Assembly: GCA_965237675.1 (NCBI GenBank)
Contig: OZ250150.1
Span: 3,008,001 to 3,072,000 of the forward strand
DNA length: 64,000 nucleotides
Direction of reading: 5' to 3'
From: Candidatus Latescibacterota bacterium
GTDB lineage: Bacteria > Latescibacterota > UBA2968 > GCA-2709665
Shown: positions 35,425 to 51,007 of the stretch, in pieces
Numbering within the stretch: position 1 is the first letter of the stretch
How the letters are laid out: every line of letters begins with the position of its first letter
Program-made: the position numbers and the translations under genes
The notes under the pieces: model-generated
Database searches by the model: none
Told to the model about the DNA's origin: nothing
Seen by the model: the letters and a program-made list of their open reading frames with translations, nothing else

Positions 35425-36366
35425 TTACCAGGCATAAGGTTTTCTAGGAATTACCGCTCCTGTCGAAGAAGCTGTGCTTTCTGTGAGTTCTCCGAATTTA
35501 TCACCGAACTGCTCTCTCCACTTTTTGACACTGGTATTATGATCAGTCGCTTCAAACGCTTCGTCCACCTTGCGGTTGTATGTATTAAATAAATCCCTAA
35601 AATGCCTGTATTTATCCTGATCCCAGTGCCTGGTGAAACTCTCTTCTGGCAAGACCGGATTATAGACTTCCGGCATGTCCGGATTGTCTTGCAGGAAGTC
35701 ATTTATCCGATTCGAAATCGTCTTCAAGGTGGTTGGAATATCCTTGAAGTCTTCACTGCCCTCGTCGTCATCGAACACACGCTCACCGATGAGTGTGGTC
35801 AAGAGGATTGATTTAATCGAGAAGTTTCCCTTATGATCTCTGAGGAATTTCAACAGTCTCGTAACCCTCTTTAGGTTTCCGTTTGTTATCCTTGTTTTTC
35901 CGTTGAACCAGTCCCGATAACCGGTGCCGTCAGTGATTTCAAATTCATTTTCCTTCCGATTGCAGATATATCGATATTCTCCATCCGTGACGCAGGGAAC
36001 AATATCCAAATGAAAATCGCCTGCATAGTCGATGTAAACGCACCTTGTCTTCCGATGTGATTTTTCCCGATATGTATCGTTTTGCCTGAGGCAATGGTAG
36101 ACTTCGTTTATGTATTCTTCAGGTTCTTTATCGGGATCGTATTCCATAAACAACAAAACGTCAGCATCATATTCACGGCCATTTACGGGTTTGATAATAG
36201 TCCTTAACGCATAAGAACCCTGTCGTTCGGTTTTTTCGTATGAGTCCAGGGATTTGCTAAGGTAATCAACTACCGCCGATGTGCTGCGATTCAACCTGTC
36301 GAGTCTTGTTTCGTTGAGATTTACCTCTTCGGCGAGGAAATCTTCGAAATATTTCTGGTGTTTCAT
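35425..36366 (-). CDS. cGAS/DncV-like nucleotidyltransferase (CD-NTase, SMODS)
   Basis: QGSYALRTIIKP...EYDAD (GS..DxD), KTRCV, FHLDIVP, NPV..E.F..W, W..QFG. Confidence 0.9.
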   Translation of the reverse strand: MKHQKYFEDFLAEEVNLNETRLDRLNRSTSAVVDYLSKSLDSYEKTERQGSYALRTIIKPVNGREYDADVLLFMEYDPDKEPEEYINEVYHCLRQNDTYREKSHRKTRCVYIDYAGDFHLDIVPCVTDGEYRYICNRKENEFEITDGTGYRDWFNGKTRITNGNLKRVTRLLKFLRDHKGNFSIKSILLTTLIGERVFDDDEGSEDFKDIPTTLKTISNRINDFLQDNPDMPEVYNPVLPEESFTRHWDQDKYRHFRDLFNTYNRKVDEAFEATDHNTSVKKWREQFGDKFGELTESTASSTGAVIPRKPYAW

Positions 36367-36424
36367 TTTTCTTCTCCTTTAATGTTTCGGGGACTAAGAA
36401 GCATGACTGTTTTTCTGTACTTTG

Positions 36425-37374
36425 CTAGAGCCCAAGGAATTCTCTTATCCTTTGGCCCCTGTGTGTAAAATCCTGATCAGCTTCTCGTGTCCAGTCATGA
36501 AGTTTCCGAGGGGTATCCATCGGAAGGGGTCTGTCCGATACGAAATTGATGCGCAGAAGTTGCTCTGGTTCCCTCATCTCCTGCGTTTGAAGCAACAAAC
36601 TTAACATGTTGTGAGAACTCTCACCTTGTAGATTGAAAATCAGATTGAGGAGTTTTTGGCGTTCCCAGCGGGTGGCCATTCCCCACCCCCAAAAAGCATT
36701 ATGAAGCCTTCCGGTGTTGAATTGATAGGTAGTTTTGCTTGTACCCGTACCAATCTAAGGTCACCTAAATCAACACCCAGACGGCGCTTCGCATCAATTG
36801 CTGCGACGAGGGCAGGATTATTTGCCCACAAACCGCCATCGATCAGTGGATAGTGATCCACCATATAGGGGTCGAAGTATGTAGGTGCAGAACAAGAAGC
36901 CATCACCGCGTCGCCGACTTGAACCTCAGGGTCGCGATGGAACCCAGGATCATACGCTGATTTAAACACGTGCACCCGACCGCCTCCAATATCAACGGAT
37001 GGGATGATTAGCGGTACTGAAATATCCTTCAAACGTGTGTTTCCAAACAGCTTAAAGAGGTAACGTCGCAAGACCTCATTGCTGTAACGACTCGCAAAGA
37101 GGCTAGTTAAACCGAATGGGATGAATTTGTCAATCCAACGTCGCTTAAAGATCAGATGAGCTTGTTCAGCGTAGAGATTGTATAGAGAATCTGCAGATCG
37201 ACCGTGAGCCAATCCAGCGGCGATGATAGAACCCGTGCTCGTGCCCGCAAACAAACCGAATTTGTCACACCATTCGACGCCCCATTCCTCCTCCATGCGC
37301 TTGAGAAGATACGCTGAGTATGCGCCTCTGAAACCACCCCCGTCAATAGACAGAATATAGAATTTTCCGCTCAA
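36425..37374 (-). pseudogene. capV: CapV-like patatin phospholipase, frameshifted near 36754
   Basis: DGGGFRG, GTSTG, SAPTYF, DGGLWANNP; IGTG and the C-terminus continue in another frame to 36425. Confidence 0.8.
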
Positions 37375-37437
37375 AACAGGAATTTCCTCCTTGTGACCTC
37401 GCGATGCCAGACACACAGTGCTTGCATTTAATCAAGT

Positions 37438-39028: not shown

Positions 39029-40135
39029 GGTAAGAAGAGTATAGATCGAAAACCCCGTCTCGTCAAATTGGACGGGAGACTCAACGAGAGAATTATGGCT
39101 AGGATTCGGGCATATCGCTTGAGATTAGGGTGCATTCGTGGTCTCTCGGACATGGGCGATAGGCCCCAATTGGTTTGAAGCCGAATACGATTGTTTGACG
39201 GGTTTTCGCATTTATCCTGCCTATCCTGTTCATCCATGTTTCCCGTCTACCCACATCCGCCCAATGGCCGCCTGAATCTTCTTTTCGAATCGCTCAATCA
39301 ACACTTGGTTGGCTCTCACAAGCGCCTGCTCGGTGTCGACCTCAGCGACAATTTTTCGTTGCACAACGACAGATGGTAACGGGACTCTAATTGTCTTGAT
39401 GTCGATCAGATGAAGATTTGTTACTGTTCCTGACTTCGATCGAGATGTAGCTTGTGCGTAAGCAGGGTCAGAATTCAGGAACAGCTCGAGGAAACGTGAA
39501 TCTACCAGTTCTCGACGAGGTTTTATTAATGCAAGGCTTACGAAGATGCTAAAATCACCTTCCCAATCAACCATTTTTGCCACCCCGATTGTCCCGTTTT
39601 TTGTATATAGTATATCTCCCTGTTCGGGGTGACATCGCTTCGTGAGCTCAAGGTGTTCCTCTTTGGAGATAAACTTTTTTGACGAGTTGCTCTTCGTAAT
39701 GTCAGTCACCCGGAGAAAAGGTATACCCGAGTCAGTGTATGTTGGAGTTGTGTGGGTACCGTCGGTAATCTTGTTAGCGATTTCCGATAACTCCACCATC
39801 GGCCACTCGGTGTCGATGTGAATATGCGGCCGGTAGTTGTCGATTACCGCGCGCGCGCCGTCGATCACCCGCTGATATCCCTCGATCTCCGCCACAATCT
39901 CCCGCTGCACCTCCAGCGGCGGCAGGGGGATCTCGAAATTCTCAATGAACTTTCGCGGCACACGTTGGAGTCCACCGGTTCCCGTCATATTATCGATACC
40001 GGCTTGGCGAAATGACGGACGGGTAACGCAATAATAAACCCACTCCGAGAGCACCTTCTCAGACGCTCGAATCACGTAGAATTCGCTGGAACCAAATCCA
40101 ATACCATTTTTCAGATTTCTAGCAATTCCAGCCTT

Positions 40136-41949
40136 GAGTCCACTCCGAAAAGTCGAGTTTACTTATTGAGGAAAAAGTACTAAATTTCAAGGTGAGAAGA
40201 GGTTTCAAAGTTGCGGACGTATAAAGGAAAAAGCGAGGGTATAGAATCAATGTATAAGAGAAGCGCGTCATGCAGCCAACCGGATCTGTTTTCGGGCTTC
40301 GAGTCGCATTTCAAGAGGCGCAAGCAGGACCAGTTGAATGATCCGAAGTCGTGGCATAATCTGTTTTACCAGCACGTCACGTCAAAGATAGAAGAGGATG
40401 TGTTTTCGGTGTTGTTTGATCCCAACCAAGGCCGCCCCAATGCGCCGATTCGTCACCTGGTGTCGATGATGATCTTGAAGGAGGGCTTTGGGTGGAGCGA
40501 TGCCCAACTATTCGAGCATTGTCGGTTCAACATCCTGGTGATGCGGGCATTGGGGTTGATGAATCTATGCGATGAAGTGCCTGCGGAGTCCACGTATTAT
40601 TTGTTCAAGCAGGCCTTGTATGCGGATCAACTCGAAGCCGGTCGAGATCTGATTGGAGAGACCTTTTCCAGCTTGACACAGACGCAGGCCAACGCCTTTG
40701 GTGTATTAGGTCAGCACATCCGAATGGACAGTAAGTTGATCGGCTCTAACATTGCCCTGTGTTGTCGGTTGCAGTTGGTGGTGCGTTGCTTACAAGGGTT
40801 CTGGGGGTCGCTGGACAAGGCCCAAAAGCGACGATCATCGGCAAAAAATCAGCAGGTTTTGGACGGATTGCTGAAGGTGAAGGCGCATCAGGTTGTCTAT
40901 GGTCTCACCCGCGCTGAAAAGTGTGAGAAGCTGCAGGAATGCGGGCAGTTATTGAGCAGGCTTCAAGCGACCTATACCGACGAAGACAGCGGTCACTACG
41001 GTCTGATCGTGCGTGTTATGGGGGATCAATATACCGTTTTATCGTCCTCCAAACAGGTGCTTCCGAAGCCTCCTAAAGAGATCTCCTCATCCTCCTTGCA
41101 GTCTGCCGATGATGAAGATGCGACCTTTCGCAGGAAAGGGAAGGACAAGGTGAAAGGATACAGTGTCAACCTCACCGAGACCTGTGGTGAGGACGGCCTC
41201 AATTTGATCACGGACGTTGACGTCAAACCGGCGACGACGCCCGACAATGCGTTTGTACAAGCGGCCATCGAGCGGACGCAACAGGTCGTGGGTGACGCCT
41301 TGGAAGTGTCAATGGATGGGGCCTATAATGATCAATCCAACGCCGAGTATGCAAAAGAACAGGACAAGCAATTCTATTACAGTGGCCTGCAAGGAACCCC
41401 AGGACGTTTCATTTATGAACGCACAGAAGATGGCGTCACCGTCATCGATCAACAAACCGGAGAGGTTCACATAGCCCAAGAATACAAACCGGGAAAATAC
41501 AAAATCATCATGGATGGCAAACCCCGATACTTTAAAGAACAGCACATCGACAATTACCTCAAACGCAAACAGATTGAAGCCCTGCCTGACCACATCAGAA
41601 ACCGACGCAATAACGTCGAAGCCAGCATCTTTCAGTTGAGCTACTACACCAAAGATGGCAAGACGCGCTATCGCGGACTGAGGCCACACCAATTGTGGGC
41701 GCACTGTCGCGGCTTATGGGTCAACCTCGTTCGGATCAAGAACTACCTCGCAACACCTCCGATGCTCCCCGCATAAGGGGGGGTTTCTTGCAAAAACCTC
41801 CATACCATAGGCCCTGAGCAACTTCGTAGGTTGCCCCTGAGTTGATTTGCCGCACCTACACGTTATATCGTCGCCACACGCTAAATCACAATACCCAACC
41901 CTGACCACTTACATCAGGCCTTTATAACCCCCGTTTTCGGAGGGGACTC
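40136..41949 (+). mobile_element. insertion sequence (IS5/IS1182-like DDE)
   Basis: TIRs GAGTCCACTCCGAAAA / TTTTCGGAGGGGACTC; 6-bp TSD AGCCTT at 40130-40135 and 41950-41955. Confidence 0.92.
40250..41776 (+). CDS. DDE transposase
   Basis: GRP...WSD..L DUF772-like N-terminus; RMDSK, MDGAY, RNNVEA catalytic residues. Confidence 0.9.
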   Translation: MYKRSASCSQPDLFSGFESHFKRRKQDQLNDPKSWHNLFYQHVTSKIEEDVFSVLFDPNQGRPNAPIRHLVSMMILKEGFGWSDAQLFEHCRFNILVMRALGLMNLCDEVPAESTYYLFKQALYADQLEAGRDLIGETFSSLTQTQANAFGVLGQHIRMDSKLIGSNIALCCRLQLVVRCLQGFWGSLDKAQKRRSSAKNQQVLDGLLKVKAHQVVYGLTRAEKCEKLQECGQLLSRLQATYTDEDSGHYGLIVRVMGDQYTVLSSSKQVLPKPPKEISSSSLQSADDEDATFRRKGKDKVKGYSVNLTETCGEDGLNLITDVDVKPATTPDNAFVQAAIERTQQVVGDALEVSMDGAYNDQSNAEYAKEQDKQFYYSGLQGTPGRFIYERTEDGVTVIDQQTGEVHIAQEYKPGKYKIIMDGKPRYFKEQHIDNYLKRKQIEALPDHIRNRRNNVEASIFQLSYYTKDGKTRYRGLRPHQLWAHCRGLWVNLVRIKNYLATPPMLPA

Positions 41950-44328
41950 AGCCTTGCCATTTTCAAAACATGGTGTCACCTTTGACAATAACACATCGTT
42001 GTCCGCGAAGTAGGTGTAGCTGGCGCCAACCTGACCGAGTAATCTCTGCTCCTTAGCGACGAACGTGATCTGATTCTCGTTGAGATCCGACATCGGTACA
42101 AATGAGACTGTTGCATCCATTGATATCGACGCGAGTTCGGATTTGCGAGGATTGACAATACAAATCTCTCCAATTGGTACAAACGGGAATTCACTACTGA
42201 TCCTTGTTGTCTCCCGATACCTCTCCCCACTCAGACTGTATTCCCCACCTTCCTTGATTTTGGTTTTTTCGACGATGAGGGCCGCGCCTTGCTGGATGAG
42301 TTTCTGCAACACTGACTCATCGGGGGTGGGGGGCGTTTCGTCTTTATCCTGCCTATCCTGTCCATCCATGTTCCCCCTGCCATCCATGTATTCCTTCAAA
42401 GCCAGTTGCGTTTTCGGGAGGTCGTTCTTGTCAATCGGTCTGCGCTGAGCACCAAGGTCGAAGCCGTCGTTTTCGACCTTGAAAAAGGCGATGTAGTCCG
42501 TCCTTTTCGCCAGGGTTTTGTCGAGGATCAGGATGGATGTCTTGACGCCGGAGTAGGGATTGAACACACCCGCGGGAAGAGAGACCACGGCCACGAGGTA
42601 CTCCTCGACCAGCATCTTGCGCAACTGTTTATGGGCGTTCTGGCTCTGAAAGATGATACCCTCGGGCACGATGATCCCGGCGCGGCCGGCTGGCGTGAGA
42701 TGCTCGGCCATGTAGTCCACGAACAGCACTTCGCTGCGTTTCGATTTCACCGAAAAGTGGCTGTGCGGGCGGATGCCGCCCTTGGGCGACATGAACGGCG
42801 GATTGGCCAGAATCACTTCGGCGTACTCGTTCCAGCGGTCCTCGCTGGTGAGGGTGTCGTATTCGAAGATGTGCGGGTCGGCGAAGCCGTGCAGGTACAT
42901 GTTTACCAGCGACAGGCGCACCATGTCCGGCGAGATGTCGTAGCCCTTGAAGTTGGCCGCGAGTTTGGCCCGTTCGTCCGGCGTGAACGTGCTGTGTCCC
43001 TTGTCGTCGGTATTGGCCGCATGGATATGCTTGTACGACGAAATCAGAAACCCGGCGGTGCCGCAGGCCGGGTCGAGGATGGTTTCGTTCTTCCTGGGGT
43101 CGATGACGGCGACCATGAAGTCGATGATATGGCGGGGGGTTCGGAACTGTCCGGCGTCGCCCTGGGACCCGAGGACCGAGAGCAGGTACTCGAAGGCGTC
43201 GCCGAGCCGCTCTGAATGGTCATAGGTAAACTCGTCGATGACTTTCAGGAAGGCGCGGAGGGTCTCAGGGTCTCGATACGGGAGATAGGCGTTGTTGAAG
43301 ATGTCACGGAAAAGCGGCGGGATGCCGGGGTTCTCGGGCATCTTGACAATGGCCTCGGCGTAGCGATTCAGGACTTCGTGTCCGCCCAGGCCGGATCGCA
43401 TCAGCCTGGCCCAGCCGAACCGGGCGAAGTCACCGGCGAAGAACTTCCGCGCGCCTCCGAATTCCTCGCTACCGGCGTCCATGTCGTCCATGAACTTGTA
43501 GATCAACGCGATGGTAATCTGCTCGACCTGGCTCTTGGGATCGGGCACCTTTCCGACAAGGATGTCTCGAGCGGTATCGATACGCCGTTTCGTTTCGCTA
43601 TCAAGCATAGGTAGAAGATCCTTTTTGGCCACAAAAAGCACAAAATGCACAGAAGGGATAGAAGCCAACCGGCGTGTGAAGAAACGCCTGCAGTCCGTAA
43701 GGAATATTGGCGTTATTCGTAGCTATTCAGCAGTTCACGCAATAAGCCTTTTTGTGTTTTTGTGCCTTTTGTGGCAATTGTTTTTACGCGGCAAACTGGT
43801 TGAGCGGGATAATAACCACAAAAAGCACAGAACGCACAGAAATTAAGGAGCTGAATGGCAGGTGTCGAATCGACTCGATTCTGTAGTTATCACGGTGTTT
43901 TTCTTGGCTATATAGCCAGTTACTGGTTAATTCTTTTTTTGTGTTTTTGTGCCTTTTGTGGCAATTGTTTTTACACGGCAAACTGGTTGAGTAGGACGAT
44001 AGCCACAAAAAGCACAGACGGCACAGAAATTAAGGAGCTGAATGGCAGGTGTAGAATCGACTCGATTCTGTAGTCAGTACGGTGTTTCTCTTGGCTATAC
44101 ACCCTGTAACTGATTGGTTCTTTTTGTGTTTTTGTGCCTTTTGTGGCAATTGTTTTTGCGCGGCAAACTGGCTAAGCGGGACAATAACCACAAAAAGCAC
44201 AGAAAGCACAGAAAGTGAACATCAGCGTACAAACGGTCAGAATTCGATCGCCCTACGTGCCAATATAGAGTGAGACAACTCCCCATCCGAGTTTAGTGTA
44301 GGTTTGAGGGCGGAGAGGAGAGCAAGAG

Positions 44329-44797
44329 ATGATGAGTATGGACAACGGCCGACAGGAGCAGGTGTCGGTAGCAGTCCCGGAGCGGAGCGAAGGGACTGCT
44401 ACCGAGGCGCCCCGCCCTGACCCGGAAGTGCCAGAGAAGGCGAAGCGCCGGCGGTTCACTGCGCGGTACAAGCTTCGGGTCCTCCAAGAGGCGGAGGCGT
44501 GTCGAGAGCCGGGTCAGCTCGGCGCATTGCTGCGACGAGAGGGGCTATACTCCTCGCACCTGGCACAATGGCGTCGCGCCCGGCGTGAAAGGATCGTTGA
44601 AGGCGCTTTCCAAGCAGCGCGGTCCCAAGGGCCGTCGTCGCGAACCGGTGGCCGTCGAGAACGAGCAGCTACGCAAAGAAAACGCTCGGTTGCGACGACG
44701 CCTGGAGCAGGCGCAGATGGTCCTTGAGATCCAAAAAAAAGCCTCGGAGATCCTGGGCATCCCCCTGAACCCGCCGCCGAGCGACGACGACGCATGA
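44329..44797 (+). pseudogene. IS3-family OrfA with internal +1 frameshift
   Basis: RRRFTARYKL, LLRREGLYSSHL..WR, then GSLKAL...LEIQKKAS in another frame; extra A at 44588-44590. Confidence 0.75.
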
Positions 44798-45807
44798 AAG
44801 CCGCCGCCGAACAATTGGCCCCGACCGTCGGCTTGGCTTCGGCGTGCCGCGCGTTGGGTGTGGCTCGGGCCTCGGTCTACCGGCAGCGCAAGCCCCCTGT
44901 GTCGAGACGCCGTCCCTGTTGCCGGCCTTCGCCGCGTGCGCTGGCCCCGCCGGAGCGAGCCCACGTGCTGGACGTGCTGCACGAGGACCGCTTCGTAGAC
45001 CGAGCCCCGGCGGCAGTATACGCCATCCTGCTGGAGCAAGGACGGTATCTGTGCTCGATACGAACGATGTATCGCCTGCTCCACAATGCCAAAGAGGTGC
45101 ACGAGCGACGACGACAGCGGCGCCACCCGCATCGGGAACCGCCGCGCCTGGTGGCCACCGCCCCAAACCAGGTGTGGACTTGGGACATCACGCGCCTGCC
45201 GGGTCCGCGCAAGTGGGTGACCTATCCCCTCTATGTGGTGCTGGATCTGTTCTCGCGCTACGTCGTGGCTTGGATGGTGGCCACGTGCGAGAGCGCCACC
45301 CGGGCGCAGCGGTTAATCCACAGCGCCTGCCAAAAGCAGGACATCGAGCCCGGACAACTCACCCTGCACCAGGACCGGGGTGGGCCGATGACGGCTAAGA
45401 CGTTTTCGCAGTTGTTGATCGATCTGGACATCCTGGCCAGCTACTCGAGGCCGCGCGTGTCCGATGACAATCCGTACTCGGAAAGCCAATTCAAGACGCT
45501 TAAATACGCACCGACGTACCCGGGGCGCTTTTCCAGTACTCACAACGCGCGCACCTATTTCCAGACGTTTTTCCCCTGGTACAACACCCAACACCGTCAC
45601 AGTGGATTGGGGCTGCTCACACCGGACAAAGTGCACTACGGCCTGGCCGACGAGATTCAGACGGCACGACAGCACGTGCTCCACAAGGCCTTTGCAAACC
45701 ATCCTGAACGCTTCGTCAACGGCCCGCCTCGACCACCACGGGTTCCTCGTGCAGTCTGGATCAATCAGCCACCAAACTCCATCGAATGCGACCGTATGCG
45801 TCATTGA
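44794..45807 (+). CDS. IS3-family OrfB transposase (rve core)
   Basis: PNQVWTWDIT, LDLFSRY, HQDRG, DNPYSESQFKTLKY, YNTQHRH. Confidence 0.92.
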   Translation: MKAAAEQLAPTVGLASACRALGVARASVYRQRKPPVSRRRPCCRPSPRALAPPERAHVLDVLHEDRFVDRAPAAVYAILLEQGRYLCSIRTMYRLLHNAKEVHERRRQRRHPHREPPRLVATAPNQVWTWDITRLPGPRKWVTYPLYVVLDLFSRYVVAWMVATCESATRAQRLIHSACQKQDIEPGQLTLHQDRGGPMTAKTFSQLLIDLDILASYSRPRVSDDNPYSESQFKTLKYAPTYPGRFSSTHNARTYFQTFFPWYNTQHRHSGLGLLTPDKVHYGLADEIQTARQHVLHKAFANHPERFVNGPPRPPRVPRAVWINQPPNSIECDRMRH

Positions 45808-45874
45808 ATTCTCACGCGAGGTGTCTCATTCCTATTGACATGTTCCGTCGCGCCTTTTGTGGCTACGAAGCAAT

Positions 45875-46255
45875 TCACAGGATTAGCTTTTTTACCTGGA
45901 GCTTTGCGGCGCCGAAGTTGATGAGCATAGCGTCACGATGACCGGATGCGCGGAGATAGCCCAGCGTCTGTGCGATATGTTCCGGTGCCAAAGTCCTGGC
46001 AGCCTTAAGCTCAAGAACAAGGCAGTTTTCCACGAACAAATCGGCAAAGAAGCTGCCGAGGAGCGTACCGTCTTCATCGCGCACCTGTAGAGGCTTTTGC
46101 TGCTCGACAGAAAGGCCAATCTTACTCAAACGGTGGGCCATTCCATTCTCATACACCTTCTCCAGGTGACCATTCCGAAGATGGGTATGCAATTCAAAAG
46201 CCGTTTGCCGAACCTTATCACACAAATCTCGAACGCGCTGGTCGTCTCTTTTCAC
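45875..46255 (-). CDS. GxxExxY protein (PD-(D/E)XK-like nuclease fold)
   Basis: GHLEKVY motif, ADLFVE..LVLELKA, HIAQTLGYL, LINFG; GTG start at 46255. Confidence 0.92.
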   Translation of the reverse strand: MKRDDQRVRDLCDKVRQTAFELHTHLRNGHLEKVYENGMAHRLSKIGLSVEQQKPLQVRDEDGTLLGSFFADLFVENCLVLELKAARTLAPEHIAQTLGYLRASGHRDAMLINFGAAKLQVKKLIL

Positions 46256-47281
46256 TTTATAACCGATCAATTGGCCACAAAAAGCACAAAAGGCACCGAA
46301 AGTATAGAAGCCAAACGGCAGGTGCCGAAACAACGGGACTCAACATCCATTATCGGTGTCGGCGGTGGCCCATCATCAGTTTGGCCACAAAAAGCACAAA
46401 AGGTACAGAAATTAAATGGCTGAACAGCGGGTGTAGAATCGACTCCATTCTGTAGTCACTGCGGTGTTTTCCTAGGCTATACACCCTGTAACTGAATAGT
46501 TCCTTTTTGTGTTTTTGTGCCTTTTGTGGCCATTGCCTTTAAGCCGCGAACTGGCTGAACGGGAAAATAACCACAAAAAGCACAGAAGGCACAGAAATTA
46601 GAGAACTGAACGGCAGGTGTAGAACCGCCTCGATTCCCTAGCTAATACGGTGTTTTTCTAGGCCATTTGCCGGTTTTCGGGGTCGTTTCCTTTTGTGTTT
46701 TTGTGCCTTTTGTGGCCATTGATTTTATGCAGCAAACTGGTTCAGCGGGACAAAAAGCACAGAAGGCACAGAGGGTGCAGAATAGAAACGACATGTGTAG
46801 CAACGACTGCACTCGGTATCGACTATTGGTGTCATTCGCGGCTATTCAGCAGTTCACGGAATAGGCCTTTTTGCCTTTTGTGTTTTTGTGCCTTTTGTGG
46901 CCATTGTCTTTACACGGCAAACTGATTGAGCGGGACGACAACCACAAAAAGCACAGAAGGCACAGAAATTAAGGAGCTGAACGGCAGGTGTCGAATCGAC
47001 TCGATTCTGTAGTTATTACGCTGTTTTTCTTGGCTATACAGCCAGTAACTGGTTAATTCTTTTTTTTGTGTTTTTGTGCCTTTTGTGGCAATTGTTTTTA
47101 CGCGGCAAACTGGTTGAGCGGGATAATAACCACAAAAAGCACAGAACGCACAGAAGGTATAGAAGCTAAACGGCATGTGTAGAAACGACGGGATTCAGTA
47201 TCGACTATTGGTGTCATTCGTGGCTATTCATCCTTTCACAGAATAAGTATTTTTCTCTTGTGCCTTTTGTGGCAATCGATT

Positions 47282-49813
47282 CTATGCAGCAAACTGGTTC
47301 AAAGGTACGTAGTCTTTCACGTATTCGGGAACGAGGGTGCGGTATTTTTCCGGTACGGCCCCCAGGTCTTTCATTGAGAGAACCGGGCTCGTGGCCAGGT
47401 CGGTGAAGTGCCGGTTTTCGATGATGTGGCGGATCTGGTCGCTTGTGACGTACGCCTTGAAATAGGTCTTGATCGCGGGGATGGACTCGACCTCCTCGGG
47501 GGTGTAGTCGGCCACGAACTTCGCGAATTCCTCTTCCAGCATTTCGTCCCTGGATTTAAATCGCGGGATCAGCCCGAACACTTTCTCCAGAATCTCCCGC
47601 AGGGTGATGCGGCGGTCCACGGCCGCTGCTCGGCGCAGCTTTTCAAGGGTGTAGTACTCCTCGGGTCGGTCGAAGACCTCCTGGTTGACGTAGTCGATGA
47701 CCCGGTCCCAGTGACCGGCCTCCACGGCCTGGGCGATAGTGTCGTCCTTGCGCACGGCATCCTCGAATTTCTCGAAGAACATGCGGTCGATCTTCATCCC
47801 TTCCGAACCGATGGCCTCGACCTGGATCGAGGAGAGGATGTCCCTGCCCAGGTATTCGTAGGCGCCCGCGTCGGACCCGGGCTGTTCCCCGCCCCCTCTT
47901 TCATGGGCGTCTTTATAGACCACAGGCAAATTCAACACTTCGTCGTAGTTGAACTCGGTCTCGAAGTATTCGCAGCTGGCGAAGAAGTCGAACAGCTTGA
48001 ACGCGGTCTTATCGGGCTCGTCTACGCGTTCCGCCACGGCCGGATTGAGCAACTGCTCGAGGAAGTCGTGTTTCCGCGTGCCCCGCCCCTTGATCTGGAT
48101 GAAGTCGGTGGGGGAGAAGATGGGGCGGAACAGACCCAGATTCAGAATATCCGTGCAATCGTACCCGGTGGTCATCATGCCAACGGTCACACAGACCCGC
48201 GCTTTACATGTCCGATAGGAGGGGAGAAAGTTGCACGAGCCGAGCAGTTTATTGTTTGCAAAATTGATGGTTAGCTGCTGCGCGTGCGCAATCTGCGACG
48301 TCACCTGAACCGCAAAATCCGATTGATAGCGGTCAGGAAACATGACGTGGGCCATGGCGTTGAGGATCTGAGTCAATCTTGCCGCGTGGTTCTGGCTGAC
48401 TGCAAAGACGATGGACTTGCCGACTTCGCCGCTGACGGGGTCCCGCAGCGCATTCTCCAGGAAAGTCTTGCAGAAAAGCTGGTTGGTCGCTTCGGAATAG
48501 AAACGCTTCTCAAATTCACGCTGTTTGTAGGCCTCTTCCTGCTCTTCTCCCTCATCGTCCTTAAAAGAAACGACGAATCCCTGTTCCGAGAGCAAATCGG
48601 TCGTCACCTTCGTGCGTGCGTCCACAACCGTCGGATTGATCAGATAGCCATCTTTCACGCCGTCGAGCAGCGAGTACTTGAACGTGGGCTGCCCGCTCTC
48701 GCATCCAAACGTGCGGTAGGTATCCATCAGAAGCCGGCGTTCGGCGTCGCGCGGATCCCGCGTGGTGGGGTGCGTGTGGTCGAACCCCTTGAGGTAGTCG
48801 CGGGGGGTTGCGGTGAGGCCCAGCTTGTACCCCACGAAATAGTCGAATACGGACCGGGCATTGCCGCCGATGGACCGGTGCGCTTCGTCCGAGATGACGA
48901 GGTCGAAGTCGGTCGGTGAGAAAAGGGTCTGGTACTTGTTGTTGAACAGGAGCGATTGGACCGTGGTAACGACAATCTCCTCGGAGCGCCAGTCGTCGCG
49001 CCGCTCTTTGTAGACCACCGTCTGAAAGTCGGCCGAAAGCAGTGCAGCGAAGACCTTCCGTGCCTGCTCCTCGAGTTCCAGCCGGTCGACGAGGAACAGG
49101 ACGCGAGACGCGTTGCCGGAACGGAGAAAAAGCTTTATGACCGCGGCGGCGACAAGGGTCTTTCCCGTACCCGTGGCCATCTCGAACAGAAATCGGTCTC
49201 TGCCGTCTTTCACCGCCCGTTGCAGGGAGTGAACGGCTCTGAGTTGGTAATCACGGAGGAAGCGAAGGTTGTTGGCCTTGATGAAACCTGGGCGTTCGGT
49301 TTCGTTCTTCCACGCGGCTTCCGAGCGGTAATTCGGCCGCTGGGTGAGCACGATGTAGTCCTCGCCGACCCGCTCGTCAACCAGGCGCTGCGGGTTGGGC
49401 TGGACTCTGTTGTAGACGGTTACGGATTGCGGCGTCGGGAACGATGTGACAACGTACGGATTGCCTCGTTCGAGGTCCCAGAAGTAATGCAGGTTTCCGT
49501 TCGATAGGATAACGAAACGGCAGGCCTGCGAGCGGGCGTACTTTCGCGCCTGCTCCTTGCCCGCCAAGGGATCCTTGTCTTCCGACTTGGCCTCCAGGAC
49601 AATGAGGGGAAAACCTTTGCCGTCCAACAGCAGAAAATCGATACGACCAGACGTCCCCTCGAAATCGTCGCCCAATGCGTCGAGGTCCGCGTTTTTCAGG
49701 ACGACCTTGTGTTCGACGCGAATGTTGCCGGGCTTGCCTTCATCATCGAAGAAGCGCCACCCGGCCGCCTCGAGCATTTTATTGATCTTGATTCGCGCCG
49801 CTGCTTCATTCAT
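47282..49813 (-). CDS. hsdR: type I restriction enzyme subunit R
   Basis: IDFLL..LEAK..QARKYA nuclease, LRDYQ, MATGTGKT, DEAHRS, GLTATP, QIKGRGTR. Confidence 0.93.
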   Translation of the reverse strand: MNEAAARIKINKMLEAAGWRFFDDEGKPGNIRVEHKVVLKNADLDALGDDFEGTSGRIDFLLLDGKGFPLIVLEAKSEDKDPLAGKEQARKYARSQACRFVILSNGNLHYFWDLERGNPYVVTSFPTPQSVTVYNRVQPNPQRLVDERVGEDYIVLTQRPNYRSEAAWKNETERPGFIKANNLRFLRDYQLRAVHSLQRAVKDGRDRFLFEMATGTGKTLVAAAVIKLFLRSGNASRVLFLVDRLELEEQARKVFAALLSADFQTVVYKERRDDWRSEEIVVTTVQSLLFNNKYQTLFSPTDFDLVISDEAHRSIGGNARSVFDYFVGYKLGLTATPRDYLKGFDHTHPTTRDPRDAERRLLMDTYRTFGCESGQPTFKYSLLDGVKDGYLINPTVVDARTKVTTDLLSEQGFVVSFKDDEGEEQEEAYKQREFEKRFYSEATNQLFCKTFLENALRDPVSGEVGKSIVFAVSQNHAARLTQILNAMAHVMFPDRYQSDFAVQVTSQIAHAQQLTINFANNKLLGSCNFLPSYRTCKARVCVTVGMMTTGYDCTDILNLGLFRPIFSPTDFIQIKGRGTRKHDFLEQLLNPAVAERVDEPDKTAFKLFDFFASCEYFETEFNYDEVLNLPVVYKDAHERGGGEQPGSDAGAYEYLGRDILSSIQVEAIGSEGMKIDRMFFEKFEDAVRKDDTIAQAVEAGHWDRVIDYVNQEVFDRPEEYYTLEKLRRAAAVDRRITLREILEKVFGLIPRFKSRDEMLEEEFAKFVADYTPEEVESIPAIKTYFKAYVTSDQIRHIIENRHFTDLATSPVLSMKDLGAVPEKYRTLVPEYVKDYVPLNQFAA

Positions 49814-49849
49814 GGATGGGTTATCTCTTATTTCATTCAGAATCAACTA

Positions 49850-50215: not shown

Positions 50216-50277
50216 CGCAAGCTCTTGTCGTGCGGATTTCGTAGCTTCACGCTTCCCTTAATCCTTCATTTTTCGCC

Positions 50278-50511
50278 CTTGCCTTTAATCACAGCCCATC
50301 ATTTTAATCACACGAATCACAGTCTGTTTCGGTTTTCATCCTGTCTATCCATGTTTCTCGCTTCTCCGCTTTTGCCTTTAATCACAGTCCATCATTTTAA
50401 TCATACAAATCACAGTCTGTTTCGGTTTTCATCCTGTCTATCCATGTTTCTCGCTTCTCCGCTTTTGCCTTTAATCACAGTCCATCATTTTAATCATACA
50501 AATCACAGTCT
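50278..50511. repeat. 93-bp tandem repeat, about 2.5 copies
   Basis: GCCTTTAATCACAG at 50281, 50374, 50467; unit combines AATCAC and ATCCTG..ATCCATGT motifs. Confidence 0.9.
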
Positions 50512-51007
50512 ACCAGCCCCCAACCTGCGTCCGGTCCACGATATCCCGTGTCAGGATCTCGAACGCCGCGCCGAGGCCCTCCTGACGTGCCTCTTCGCGC
50601 TGTCCGGCGGCGCTGTAGATGCCGTATCCCTTCAGGCGCTTTTCCTCCCAGAGCAACTTCTTGTTTTTCGCATCGTAGCAGCTGACATCCAGAAAGACCG
50701 AAAGCTGGAACTGGTCCTCCTGGCCACGGTAGGTGAAGGGGTCGTCCCGCACCTCCACGATCGTACCGCGAAGCACAATGTCCGCACGGTCCTCGTCCAT
50801 CACACGCAGCGCCCCATCCTGCAGGAACGCCTGGATCAGGCTGTCCGTCAGCGCCTGCTGGATCTCCGGCTCCAGGCTCTCGTTCTCCATCAGCGGAATG
50901 GCGACCGAACGAAAACCCGACCCGCCGGTGGCCGATGTTGAATAGTACGCGCATCCGCCCAGCCAGAGCAGCAATAGTGCCGTGACAGGAAGAAGAGAAC
51001 GGTTCAA
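50510..51007 (-). CDS. lptE: LptE-family lipoprotein
   Basis: Lipobox LGGC, SVAIP..EN, ADIVLRGTI, C-terminal W. Confidence 0.75.
   Translation of the reverse strand: MNRSLLPVTALLLLWLGGCAYYSTSATGGSGFRSVAIPLMENESLEPEIQQALTDSLIQAFLQDGALRVMDEDRADIVLRGTIVEVRDDPFTYRGQEDQFQLSVFLDVSCYDAKNKKLLWEEKRLKGYGIYSAAGQREEARQEGLGAAFEILTRDIVDRTQVGGW

Follow-up and report, generated by a model that had tools for sequence, protein, structure and literature searches.

A type I restriction operon in the genome of a Candidatus Latescibacterota bacterium, from a little-known phylum, carries behind its hsdR gene a tandem array in which seven copies of the last nine codons of hsdR alternate with small palindromic repeats. 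The operon lies on the minus strand of a 64,000-nt stretch of contig OZ250150.1 (G000:C1:3008001-3072000, G000 being the source genome; hereafter the window, to which positions refer unless C1 is named), in the order hsdR, repeats, a GxxExxY/PDDEXK_3 gene, an insertion sequence (IS) of the IS3 family, repeats and hsdM. The explanation that we favour, and consider somewhat more probable than all others together, is that a segment comprising the hsdR end and the adjoining repeat, termed H here, was first duplicated, and that homologous recombination through the arms of H later amplified and reshuffled it, with allelic hsdR ends as the founding copies.

A tandem array built on the end of hsdR

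Each array unit is made up of a 27-nt tail, which is the copy of the hsdR end, an 8-nt spacer, an H element of ~146 nt and a 5-nt junction (Table 1). Within H, a left arm (GCCACAAAAGGCACAAAAACAC) and a right arm (..CTGTGCCTTCTGTGCTTTTTGTGG) that are inverted repeats of each other enclose a core of ~100 nt; in our own reading of the sequence, each arm consists of three 9-mers of the form GNCACAAAA. Arms of ~22-26 nt pair in every copy (the copies being 135-155 nt long), the arm stem is the sole pairing conserved in an alignment of 20 H copies (RNAalifold), and folding is more stable on the strand opposite to hsd in 7 of 8 H copies. Given its inverted arms, its small size, its dispersed copies and the lack of a shared open reading frame (ORF), we class H as a palindromic repeat resembling miniature inverted-repeat transposable elements (MITEs); neither a target duplication of H itself nor a transposase of its own was identified. 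Tandem Repeats Finder returned two arrays, one at 46385-47189 (period 186, 4.3 copies, 72% matches) and one at 43748-44214 (period 187, 2.5 copies, 88% matches).

The initial annotation of the window, made by a model from the sequence and a list of its ORFs, had drawn attention to the seven copies, all of which we find at the positions and with the sequences that it gave. Its statement that exactly 8 nt separate the stop position from the repeat arm is likewise borne out, the distance to GCCACAAAAGG being the same in 8 of 8 tails (the real end and seven copies). A degenerate tail pattern (AAYCARTTYGYNGYNTAR) has six matches in G000 and none for a reversed control, and the copies are therefore not due to chance; the pattern occurs at most once per genome in 40 relatives, and its highest count outside G000 among 168 genomes of the phylum is three.

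The tail belongs to hsdR and not to the repeat. Full-length HsdR orthologues (71-89% identity) are found in 15 of 40 relatives, from two families, and in all 15 the C-terminus reads V(P/S)LNQF plus one or two small residues before the stop; an NQF[AV][AV]* pattern is present in 36 of the 168 genomes of the phylum. As this C-terminus is kept where no repeat follows hsdR (G008, G001, G015, G016 and G025), the copies must derive from hsdR, and the converse possibility, that the repeat supplied the tail, was rejected on the same ground. In G031, G039, G029 and G034, GCCACAAAAGG or a close variant lies 7-8 nt behind the hsdR stop (by eye), and the position of H behind hsdR is thus old.

Ahead of the copies, the junction has the form right arm-(C/T)T(A/G)T(T/C)-tail in 6 of 7 units, and that of c3 is a ~9-nt deletion of this form (both by eye); a common form favours one founding junction over seven independent events. 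Beyond the junction, the units form a mosaic. Among units U1-U7 the left arm is invariant (mean identity 100%), with lower means for the right arm (92.5%), tail (81.8%), spacer (80%) and core (69%), and the cores fall into three types, A (H0, H2, H7), B (H1, H4, H5, H6) and C (H3), which do not track the tails: U1 and U7, for example, have tails that are 100% identical and cores that are 61% identical. Copy c3 is chimeric, with a 5' part of array type and a 3' part that, together with the next 4 nt, is 24/25 identical to the real end (by eye), which indicates that the copies and the real end have exchanged sequence. The switch between types lies near CAGTT, a motif unchanged in all eight tails; homologous exchange would look alike. 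A rare arm variant, GTGCGTTCTGTGC, precedes both c1 and c7 (by eye).

Read data, searched as Logan contigs, bear on how stable the array is. Exact unit-core pieces occur in contigs of runs from two studies, one run possibly being the source sample; the array therefore does not stem from an artefact in a single assembly. In run X8, a contig (depth 2.1; 3-7 other letters) joins 43754 to 44125, leaving two units fewer, and 44247 is joined to 45848 without the IS3-family element; unit number therefore differs in a co-occurring relative, although at a depth of 2.1 the evidence for a differing unit number is weak, and the IS3-family element is a late arrival. Uncovered parts of the array, like five contigs from an RNA library (X18), four on the IS3-family element and one short contig on a repeat arm, are uninformative on expression.

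Synonymous differences between groups of copies

The initial annotation described the copies as synonymously recoded, a description that holds between groups of tails and breaks down within the largest of them. The seven copies have the consensus GTC CCG CTC AAC CAG TTT GCC GCG TAA (VPLNQFAA*), from which the real end differs by seven changes, all synonymous (binomial p=6e-5 to 1.3e-4), where random change would yield ~25-28% synonymous; c3 differs from it by three changes, again all synonymous. It is, however, the only purely synonymous copy: the other six carry amino-acid changes, and c5 has lost its stop. Among the B-type copies c1, c2, c5, c6 and c7, three distinct changes are synonymous and five non-synonymous (our own tally), which is a neutral pattern. 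With synonymous-only changes relative to the real end and neutral change within the B group, the codon signature lies between groups, namely the real end, the B group, c3 and perhaps c4, and not within the main group.

The third-position bias that had been reported depends in the same way on the real end. Across all eight tails, variable sites at codon positions 1, 2 and 3 number 3/3/8 (Fisher p=0.013), and across the seven copies alone 3/3/6 (p=0.13). A neutral control of 11 dispersed copies of the module, far from any hsdR, gave nine synonymous and 14 non-synonymous changes, with variable sites at 6/5/6, and the array does not differ significantly from this control (Fisher p=0.34). Local tandem duplication followed by neutral decay, which the initial annotation had itself set against its proposal, thus describes most of the copies; it does not describe the founders.

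Comparison with hsdR ends elsewhere, which the initial annotation had recommended, extends the pattern for two of these groups. Against the real ends of G000, G012, G013 and G015, c3 shows 3-4 changes, all synonymous, and against six sampled VPLNQFAA ends the B consensus shows 5-7 synonymous changes each and zero non-synonymous ones. Because all seven differences between the real end and the consensus are synonymous, the founder is best seen as the working end of a synonymously diverged allele. The number of differences points the same way: the average copy stands ~2.7 changes per 27 nt from the consensus of the copies (our own count), and neutral decay of the copies would predict ~1 synonymous change in the real end where seven are seen, which favours a source in another allele, although this rate argument is rough and rests on small numbers. 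The best reading is that the founders were the working ends of at least two hsdR alleles, and we favour the view that homologous recombination brought in one of the two, the present hsdR end or the array, from another allele; alternatively, the real ends may simply have drifted, with a module that is constrained or young. The cores have separate affinities, those of B type being closest to the element behind hsdR of G012 (81-82.5%) and that of C type to the element of G013 (52/56). This fits a source in another allele, as do the similarity of the GxxExxY gene to G039 and, at low depth, a contig of run X1 with a c3-like tail, both described below. A sliding comparison of hsdR with seven orthologues revealed no obvious recombination breakpoint.

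How the array may have arisen

In the scheme that we favour, the founding step would have been a head-to-tail duplication of the segment running from hsdR codon V847 through H (~187 nt), which would have made the junction. The array would then have grown, shrunk and been reshuffled by unequal crossing-over and gene conversion through the near-invariant arms, in exchanges that would have involved the real end and probably also other hsdR alleles. The first tail alone would be translated, with the remaining tails decaying neutrally. Part of an earlier claim survives in this scheme: that each copy once ended a translated allele is right in so far as the copies descend from real hsdR ends, and wrong in taking each unit for a separate integration, since c1 and c7 are identical down to the variant in the flanking arm and the B-type copies change neutrally.

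Several observations weigh against such an origin. The cores (69%) are far more diverged than the tails (82%), so that one duplication with neutral decay is insufficient unless cores have been swapped or tails constrained. Counted over all seven copies, distinct changes number nine synonymous to seven non-synonymous (p=0.007-0.015), a synonymous excess that rests on c3 and c4 and becomes six to seven without c3 (p=0.08-0.12). A contig of run X1 leads from the body of hsdR into a c3-like tail, GTT TCG CTG AAC CAG TTT GCT GCA TAA (depth 4, with 21 nt on the short side), and the unit formed by c3 and H3 resembles the real end and element of G013; both would fit a displaced working end equally well, the X1 contig at low depth. 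Finally, no second hsdR-tail array with which to compare this one was found in the scans made here, and the founding duplication is likewise unobserved. The cluster of tails is confined to G000 among 168 genomes of the phylum, two metagenome scans for such arrays gave no matches, and a scan of genome contigs for tail arrays gave one stretch, a plain hsdR end in G039.

Alternative explanations

The initial annotation read the tail and H together as a small mobile unit that inserts site-specifically among the final nine codons of hsdR, supplying a replacement end and displacing the old one downstream, so that the array would be an ordered record of integrations. Some integrative elements do restore the 3' end of the gene that they enter (attachment (att) sites in tRNA, tmRNA and protein genes), and the array shares with these a displaced gene end beyond the inserted segment, an intact gene and founder-level differences that are synonymous only. 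All units agree in junction position and in the 8-nt spacing, CAGTT is invariant, the 3' part of the chimeric c3 is of the resident end type, c3-H3 resembles the real junction of G013, the X1 contig (weakly) shows an hsdR ending in a c3-like tail, and the triple 9-mer arms, as we read them, could pass for protein-binding sites. We nonetheless hold this explanation to be unlikely. The claimed chronology is contradicted by the identity of c1 and c7 at opposite ends of the array and by the absence of any rise in non-synonymous load or in distance from the real end with array position (Spearman p=0.43 and 0.70); three tail units lie on the far side of the GxxExxY gene from hsdR, and the B-type copies have changed neutrally. 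Site-specific integration sits poorly with one junction form throughout, with the same junction in dispersed modules that another element has moved, with the want of a second such array in 167 genomes and of any match in the metagenome scans, and with the recombinases at hand: as the initial annotation had remarked, no integrase is in view, IS transposases being the only recombinases among the ORFs checked. Nor do att-regenerating elements offer a parallel for a 146-nt 'element' without cargo, for copies that multiply and shuffle within the array, or for a module that also lies away from its target gene.

A simpler account would have one local tandem duplication and neutral decay only, with neither another allele nor any exchange with the working end. 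The common junction in all units accords with it, as do the lack of a significant codon-position bias among the copies alone and the failure to distinguish the array from the dispersed control. It has little to say, however, about a real end that is 7/7 synonymous from the consensus where ~1 such change is expected on the rough rate argument, about the 3' part of c3, which is almost identical to that end, or about core types whose nearest relatives are the hsdR elements of different species, and we judge it improbable.

A further possibility, to which we give slightly less than a one-in-seven standing and hence regard as doubtful, is that type I restriction loci harbour a cassette platform whose recombination sites are the H palindromes and whose enzyme is encoded elsewhere, the stacked ends being footprints of successive allele replacements. 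Were this so, GxxExxY genes and gene-end modules would be exchanged between alleles and species through H, and each allele replacement would have left the previous working end behind. As in integron cassette arrays, imperfect palindromes stand between short cassettes, and the GxxExxY gene, with a palindrome on either side, shows higher similarity across families than the genes next to it. Unlike those of integrons, the arms lack the attC layout (R''/L''..L'/R'), being built of triple 9-mers, and most of the 'cassettes' are 40-nt relics of a gene end; no intI was seen near the array among the ORFs checked, a genome-wide search for intI not having been made.

That the tails are kept for a function, as ends of small ORFs, as spare swappable hsdR ends or as loops of structured RNAs, is very improbable: tails are indeed more conserved than cores, the stop codon is kept in 6 of 7 copies, and a ~94-nt hairpin can form from right arm, tail and left arm, but no ORF is common to the units, whose frames differ and share no start (small ORFs ending in tails were rejected for this reason), the ten Rfam matches, all to microRNA models, lie far under gathering scores (best 28.7 vs 95 bits), the arm stem alone is conserved, dispersed copies lose the stop and the NQ residues, and hsdS is seemingly disrupted by an IS, so that the system may be decaying.

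Copies elsewhere in the genome and in relatives

The module of right arm, tail and left arm recurs at four other places in G000 (~C1:135.8k, 768.4k, 2050.6k and 4710.8k), each time as one full array period between two copies of a 45-nt hairpin, X. Genome-wide, X is present in eight copies that form these four pairs and nowhere else in G000; at 2050k both X copies hold the same ~125-nt insert. Three of the four composite sites are flanked by 8-bp target duplications (GCTTTCCG, ACCTTGCC and TCCACAGC; by eye). We interpret these structures as a composite MITE that took up a single period of an array of this kind and then spread in the genus, near full-length matches to the module being present in at least eight other genomes of the genus. 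Among these are G002, which has no match to this HsdR, and G010, which has weak partial matches only. Ungapped dispersed tails are mostly without the N residue and the stop (script consensus VPLFRFAAK, commonest VLLFRFAAK) and the array copies keep AAC and TAA; the array is therefore not derived from the dispersed copies.

H as such occurs, by nhmmer, in 20 places in G000, of which 11 are outside the window; six of these are inside another MITE and one is solitary. This other MITE family, with ends TTAACCTTGATTCG ... CGAATTGAGGTTAA, carries H nested within it, and its shorter members retain the right arm only. A long target duplication produced by insertion of H (S-H-S) was set aside, as the X and Z flanks are better read as two copies of other MITEs.

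The initial annotation had also suggested looking in other GxxExxY arrays for copies of the upstream gene end. Arrays do exist in G034 and G004; that of G034, between GxxExxY and hsdM (L034 700-1220), consists of a short H of 71 nt and a 33-nt spacer, with a period of 104 nt and about five units, and its spacer is not an hsdR tail, resembling by eye the 5' start of a GxxExxY gene. In G004, arrays are present at two further loci, of which one has a GxxExxY gene. On G004:C35 (L054), beside a tetratricopeptide repeat (TPR) gene, an H array is accompanied by a GxxExxY gene of the G000 type; the 3' half of the loop in the TPR-gene array resembles the local left flank, ambiguously. At what is seemingly the same TPR locus, G000 has a single H (C1:5015675-5015828) followed by CTATTGTCACGCTCAATCGG, which is like the junction and the first half of the tail. 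Another hsd locus, in G140 (L038 2959-6943), fuses the first 373 nt of hsdM (99%) to the last 74 nt of hsdR (96%), with content that differs between its two repeats; it shows an independent duplication scar in an hsd locus and counts in favour of the duplication scheme. A supposed second tail in G012, which would have fitted S-H-S, is instead the conserved 3' core motif of H.

Relation to known repeat systems

Intergenic palindromic repeats resembling MITEs are familiar in bacteria, among them the Correia elements of Neisseria and the ERIC, RUP and BOX repeats. Like these, H is non-coding, of ~146 nt, bounded by terminal inverted repeats that are imperfect, located between genes of a single operon, present in many copies, and nested in and carried by other MITEs. 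It differs from them in the three 9-mers of its arms, in standing, in two families, 7-8 nt after the stop codon of a particular gene, in forming arrays with gene-end relics as spacers, and in that neither a target duplication of H nor, with no search aimed at it, an autonomous partner was seen. With minisatellites and other arrays shaped by unequal recombination it shares head-to-tail units, one junction form, a mosaic structure and a unit number that differs in a co-occurring relative; unlike minisatellites, the hsdR array includes the last nine codons of a gene in its unit, preserving dead ends, and has old, diverged cores between identical arms. A minisatellite inside a MITE features in an account of Porphyromonas gingivalis (PMC4596501).

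The array thus behaves like a minisatellite built on a MITE and resembles att regeneration superficially only; it falls outside integrative elements, integrons and any Rfam family. A CRISPR-like reading was rejected in that the 40-nt 'repeats' vary more than the 146-nt 'spacers'. A brief literature search found no description of such arrays. Their interest is that a gene end can be drawn into a tandem array by a small palindromic repeat placed immediately after the stop codon, and that the array keeps dead gene ends which still bear a codon-level signature of their source alleles. There is also a caution to be drawn: synonymous-looking differences between repeats can stem from selection on one live copy combined with exchange, and do not require that each copy was translated. 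More broadly, such repeats may shape the rearrangement of type I restriction loci in Latescibacterota, as suggested by their invariant arms, by the apparent movement of the GxxExxY gene between families and by the array in G034.

Features of the locus

Table 1. Features of the hsd locus and of related repeats elsewhere in G000 (window positions unless C1 is given; aa, amino acids)
Feature	Position	Strand	Sequence or support	Remarks
hsdR, type I restriction subunit R	47282..49846	-	Pfam ResIII, HSDR_N	854 aa
Real hsdR end	47308..47282	-	GTA CCT TTG AAC CAG TTT GCT GCA TAG	VPLNQFAA*; final 27 nt of hsdR
H0	47130..47273	-	nhmmer, alignment	Palindromic, MITE-like, A-type core; left arm differs from all others (89% vs 100%)
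c1	47124..47098	-	ATC CCG CTC AAC CAG TTT GCC GCG TAA	IPLNQFAA*; identical to c7
H1	46942..47089	-	nhmmer	B-type core; 95% identical to H6
c2	46936..46910	-	GTC CCG CTC AAT CAG TTT GCC GTG TAA	VPLNQFAV*
H2	46750..46901	-	nhmmer	A-type core; right arm ~9 nt shorter at c3 junction
c3	46751..46725	-	GTC CCG CTG AAC CAG TTT GCT GCA TAA	VPLNQFAA*
H3	46571..46716	-	nhmmer	C-type core; 52/56 nt identical to element behind real hsdR end of G013
c4	46565..46539	-	TTC CCG TTC AGC CAG TTC GCG GCT TAA	FPFSQFAA*; most diverged copy (3 synonymous, 3 non-synonymous)
H4	46385..46530	-	nhmmer	B-type core
H'	46275..46381	-	nhmmer model positions 42-146	Partial (3' two-thirds, A-like); directly upstream of GxxExxY gene
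GxxExxY / PDDEXK_3 gene	45875..46264	-	Pfam PF13366; TIGR04256, 114 bits vs cut-off 35	129 aa; flanked by H elements
Short H split by IS3-family IS	44188..45863	-		Left part 45848-45863, right part 44188-44247
IS3-family IS	44248-45847		Pfam rve; NCBIfam transpos_IS3, 184 bits vs cut-off 160	~1600 bp; orfA 44329-44727 +, orfB 44794-45807 +
c5	44182..44156	-	GTC CCG CTT AGC CAG TTT GCC GCG CAA	VPLSQFAAQ; stop lost
H5	44003..44147	-	nhmmer	B-type core
c6	43997..43971	-	GTC CTA CTC AAC CAG TTT GCC GTG TAA	VLLNQFAV*
H6	43816..43962	-	nhmmer	B-type core
c7	43810..43784	-	ATC CCG CTC AAC CAG TTT GCC GCG TAA	IPLNQFAA*; identical to c1
H7	43629..43775	-	nhmmer	A-type core; right arm abuts hsdM leader (..GTGGCCAAAAAGGA..ATG)
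hsdM (N6_Mtase)	41914..43620	-	Pfam	
IS1182-like element	40211-41776			
hsdS piece	40075..39230	-		
Composite MITE X-unit-X	C1:135747-136027, 768223-768466, 2050534-2050917, 4710599-4710879			
MITE family with nested H	C1: 94.9k, 386.3k, 724.5k, 968.5k, 3575.1k, 5202.5k, others (39.0k, 431.9k, 893.1k ...)			

The nearest NCBIfam family to HsdR is the EcoAI-type R subunit, with a score under the cut-off. At the other end of the operon, residues ~457-557 of the hsdM ORF match hsdS-region sequence of other loci (tblastn), and its last 168 aa matched no Pfam family. The hsdS gene looks to be split by the IS1182-like element, its remainder lying at 40075..39230, and with a second IS inside the array the restriction system may be decaying. 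Pfam searches of 17 ORFs in and around the array found transposases of the IS3 (rve) and DUF772 families only and no integrase, the other matches being to hsd, GxxExxY, CBASS-like (cyclic oligonucleotide-based antiphage signalling) and housekeeping genes; a trans-acting enzyme encoded elsewhere in the genome lies beyond the reach of this result. A scan for promoters and terminators showed no excess, with two promoter-like sites (shuffles 2.0) and seven terminator-like sites (shuffles 5.1, sd 2.5).

Over 407 nt, the GxxExxY gene together with its 3' flank matches G039, which is from another family, at 89% DNA identity, compared with 79.7% for hsdM; hsdR ranges from 63 to 81% identity to G039 per 150-nt window. 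Relatives of the same genus carry a different GxxExxY type (39-42% aa identity). As far as sequence comparison goes, this suggests that the small GxxExxY gene may have been exchanged between loci. Directly behind hsdR, long microsatellites are seen in two relatives, GGATAGACA-like in G015 and GAGGCGA-like in G022, where the GxxExxY heads read MD(K/A)QD...

Just past hsdS, at 35425-37416 on the minus strand, lies a CBASS-like pair of genes, a SMODS/DncV-like nucleotidyltransferase (35425-36366) and a patatin-like phospholipase (36640-37416), and the hsd locus thus sits in a defence island. The HsdM protein of G000 contains NMDGQDRQDKDE. On the plus strand, at ~50225-50560, an ORF translation has a segment, ..PLITVHHFNHTNHSLFRFSSCLSMFLAS.., repeated in tandem ~2.5 times, a sign that the DNA immediately upstream of the hsdR region holds a tandem repeat of ~100 nt.

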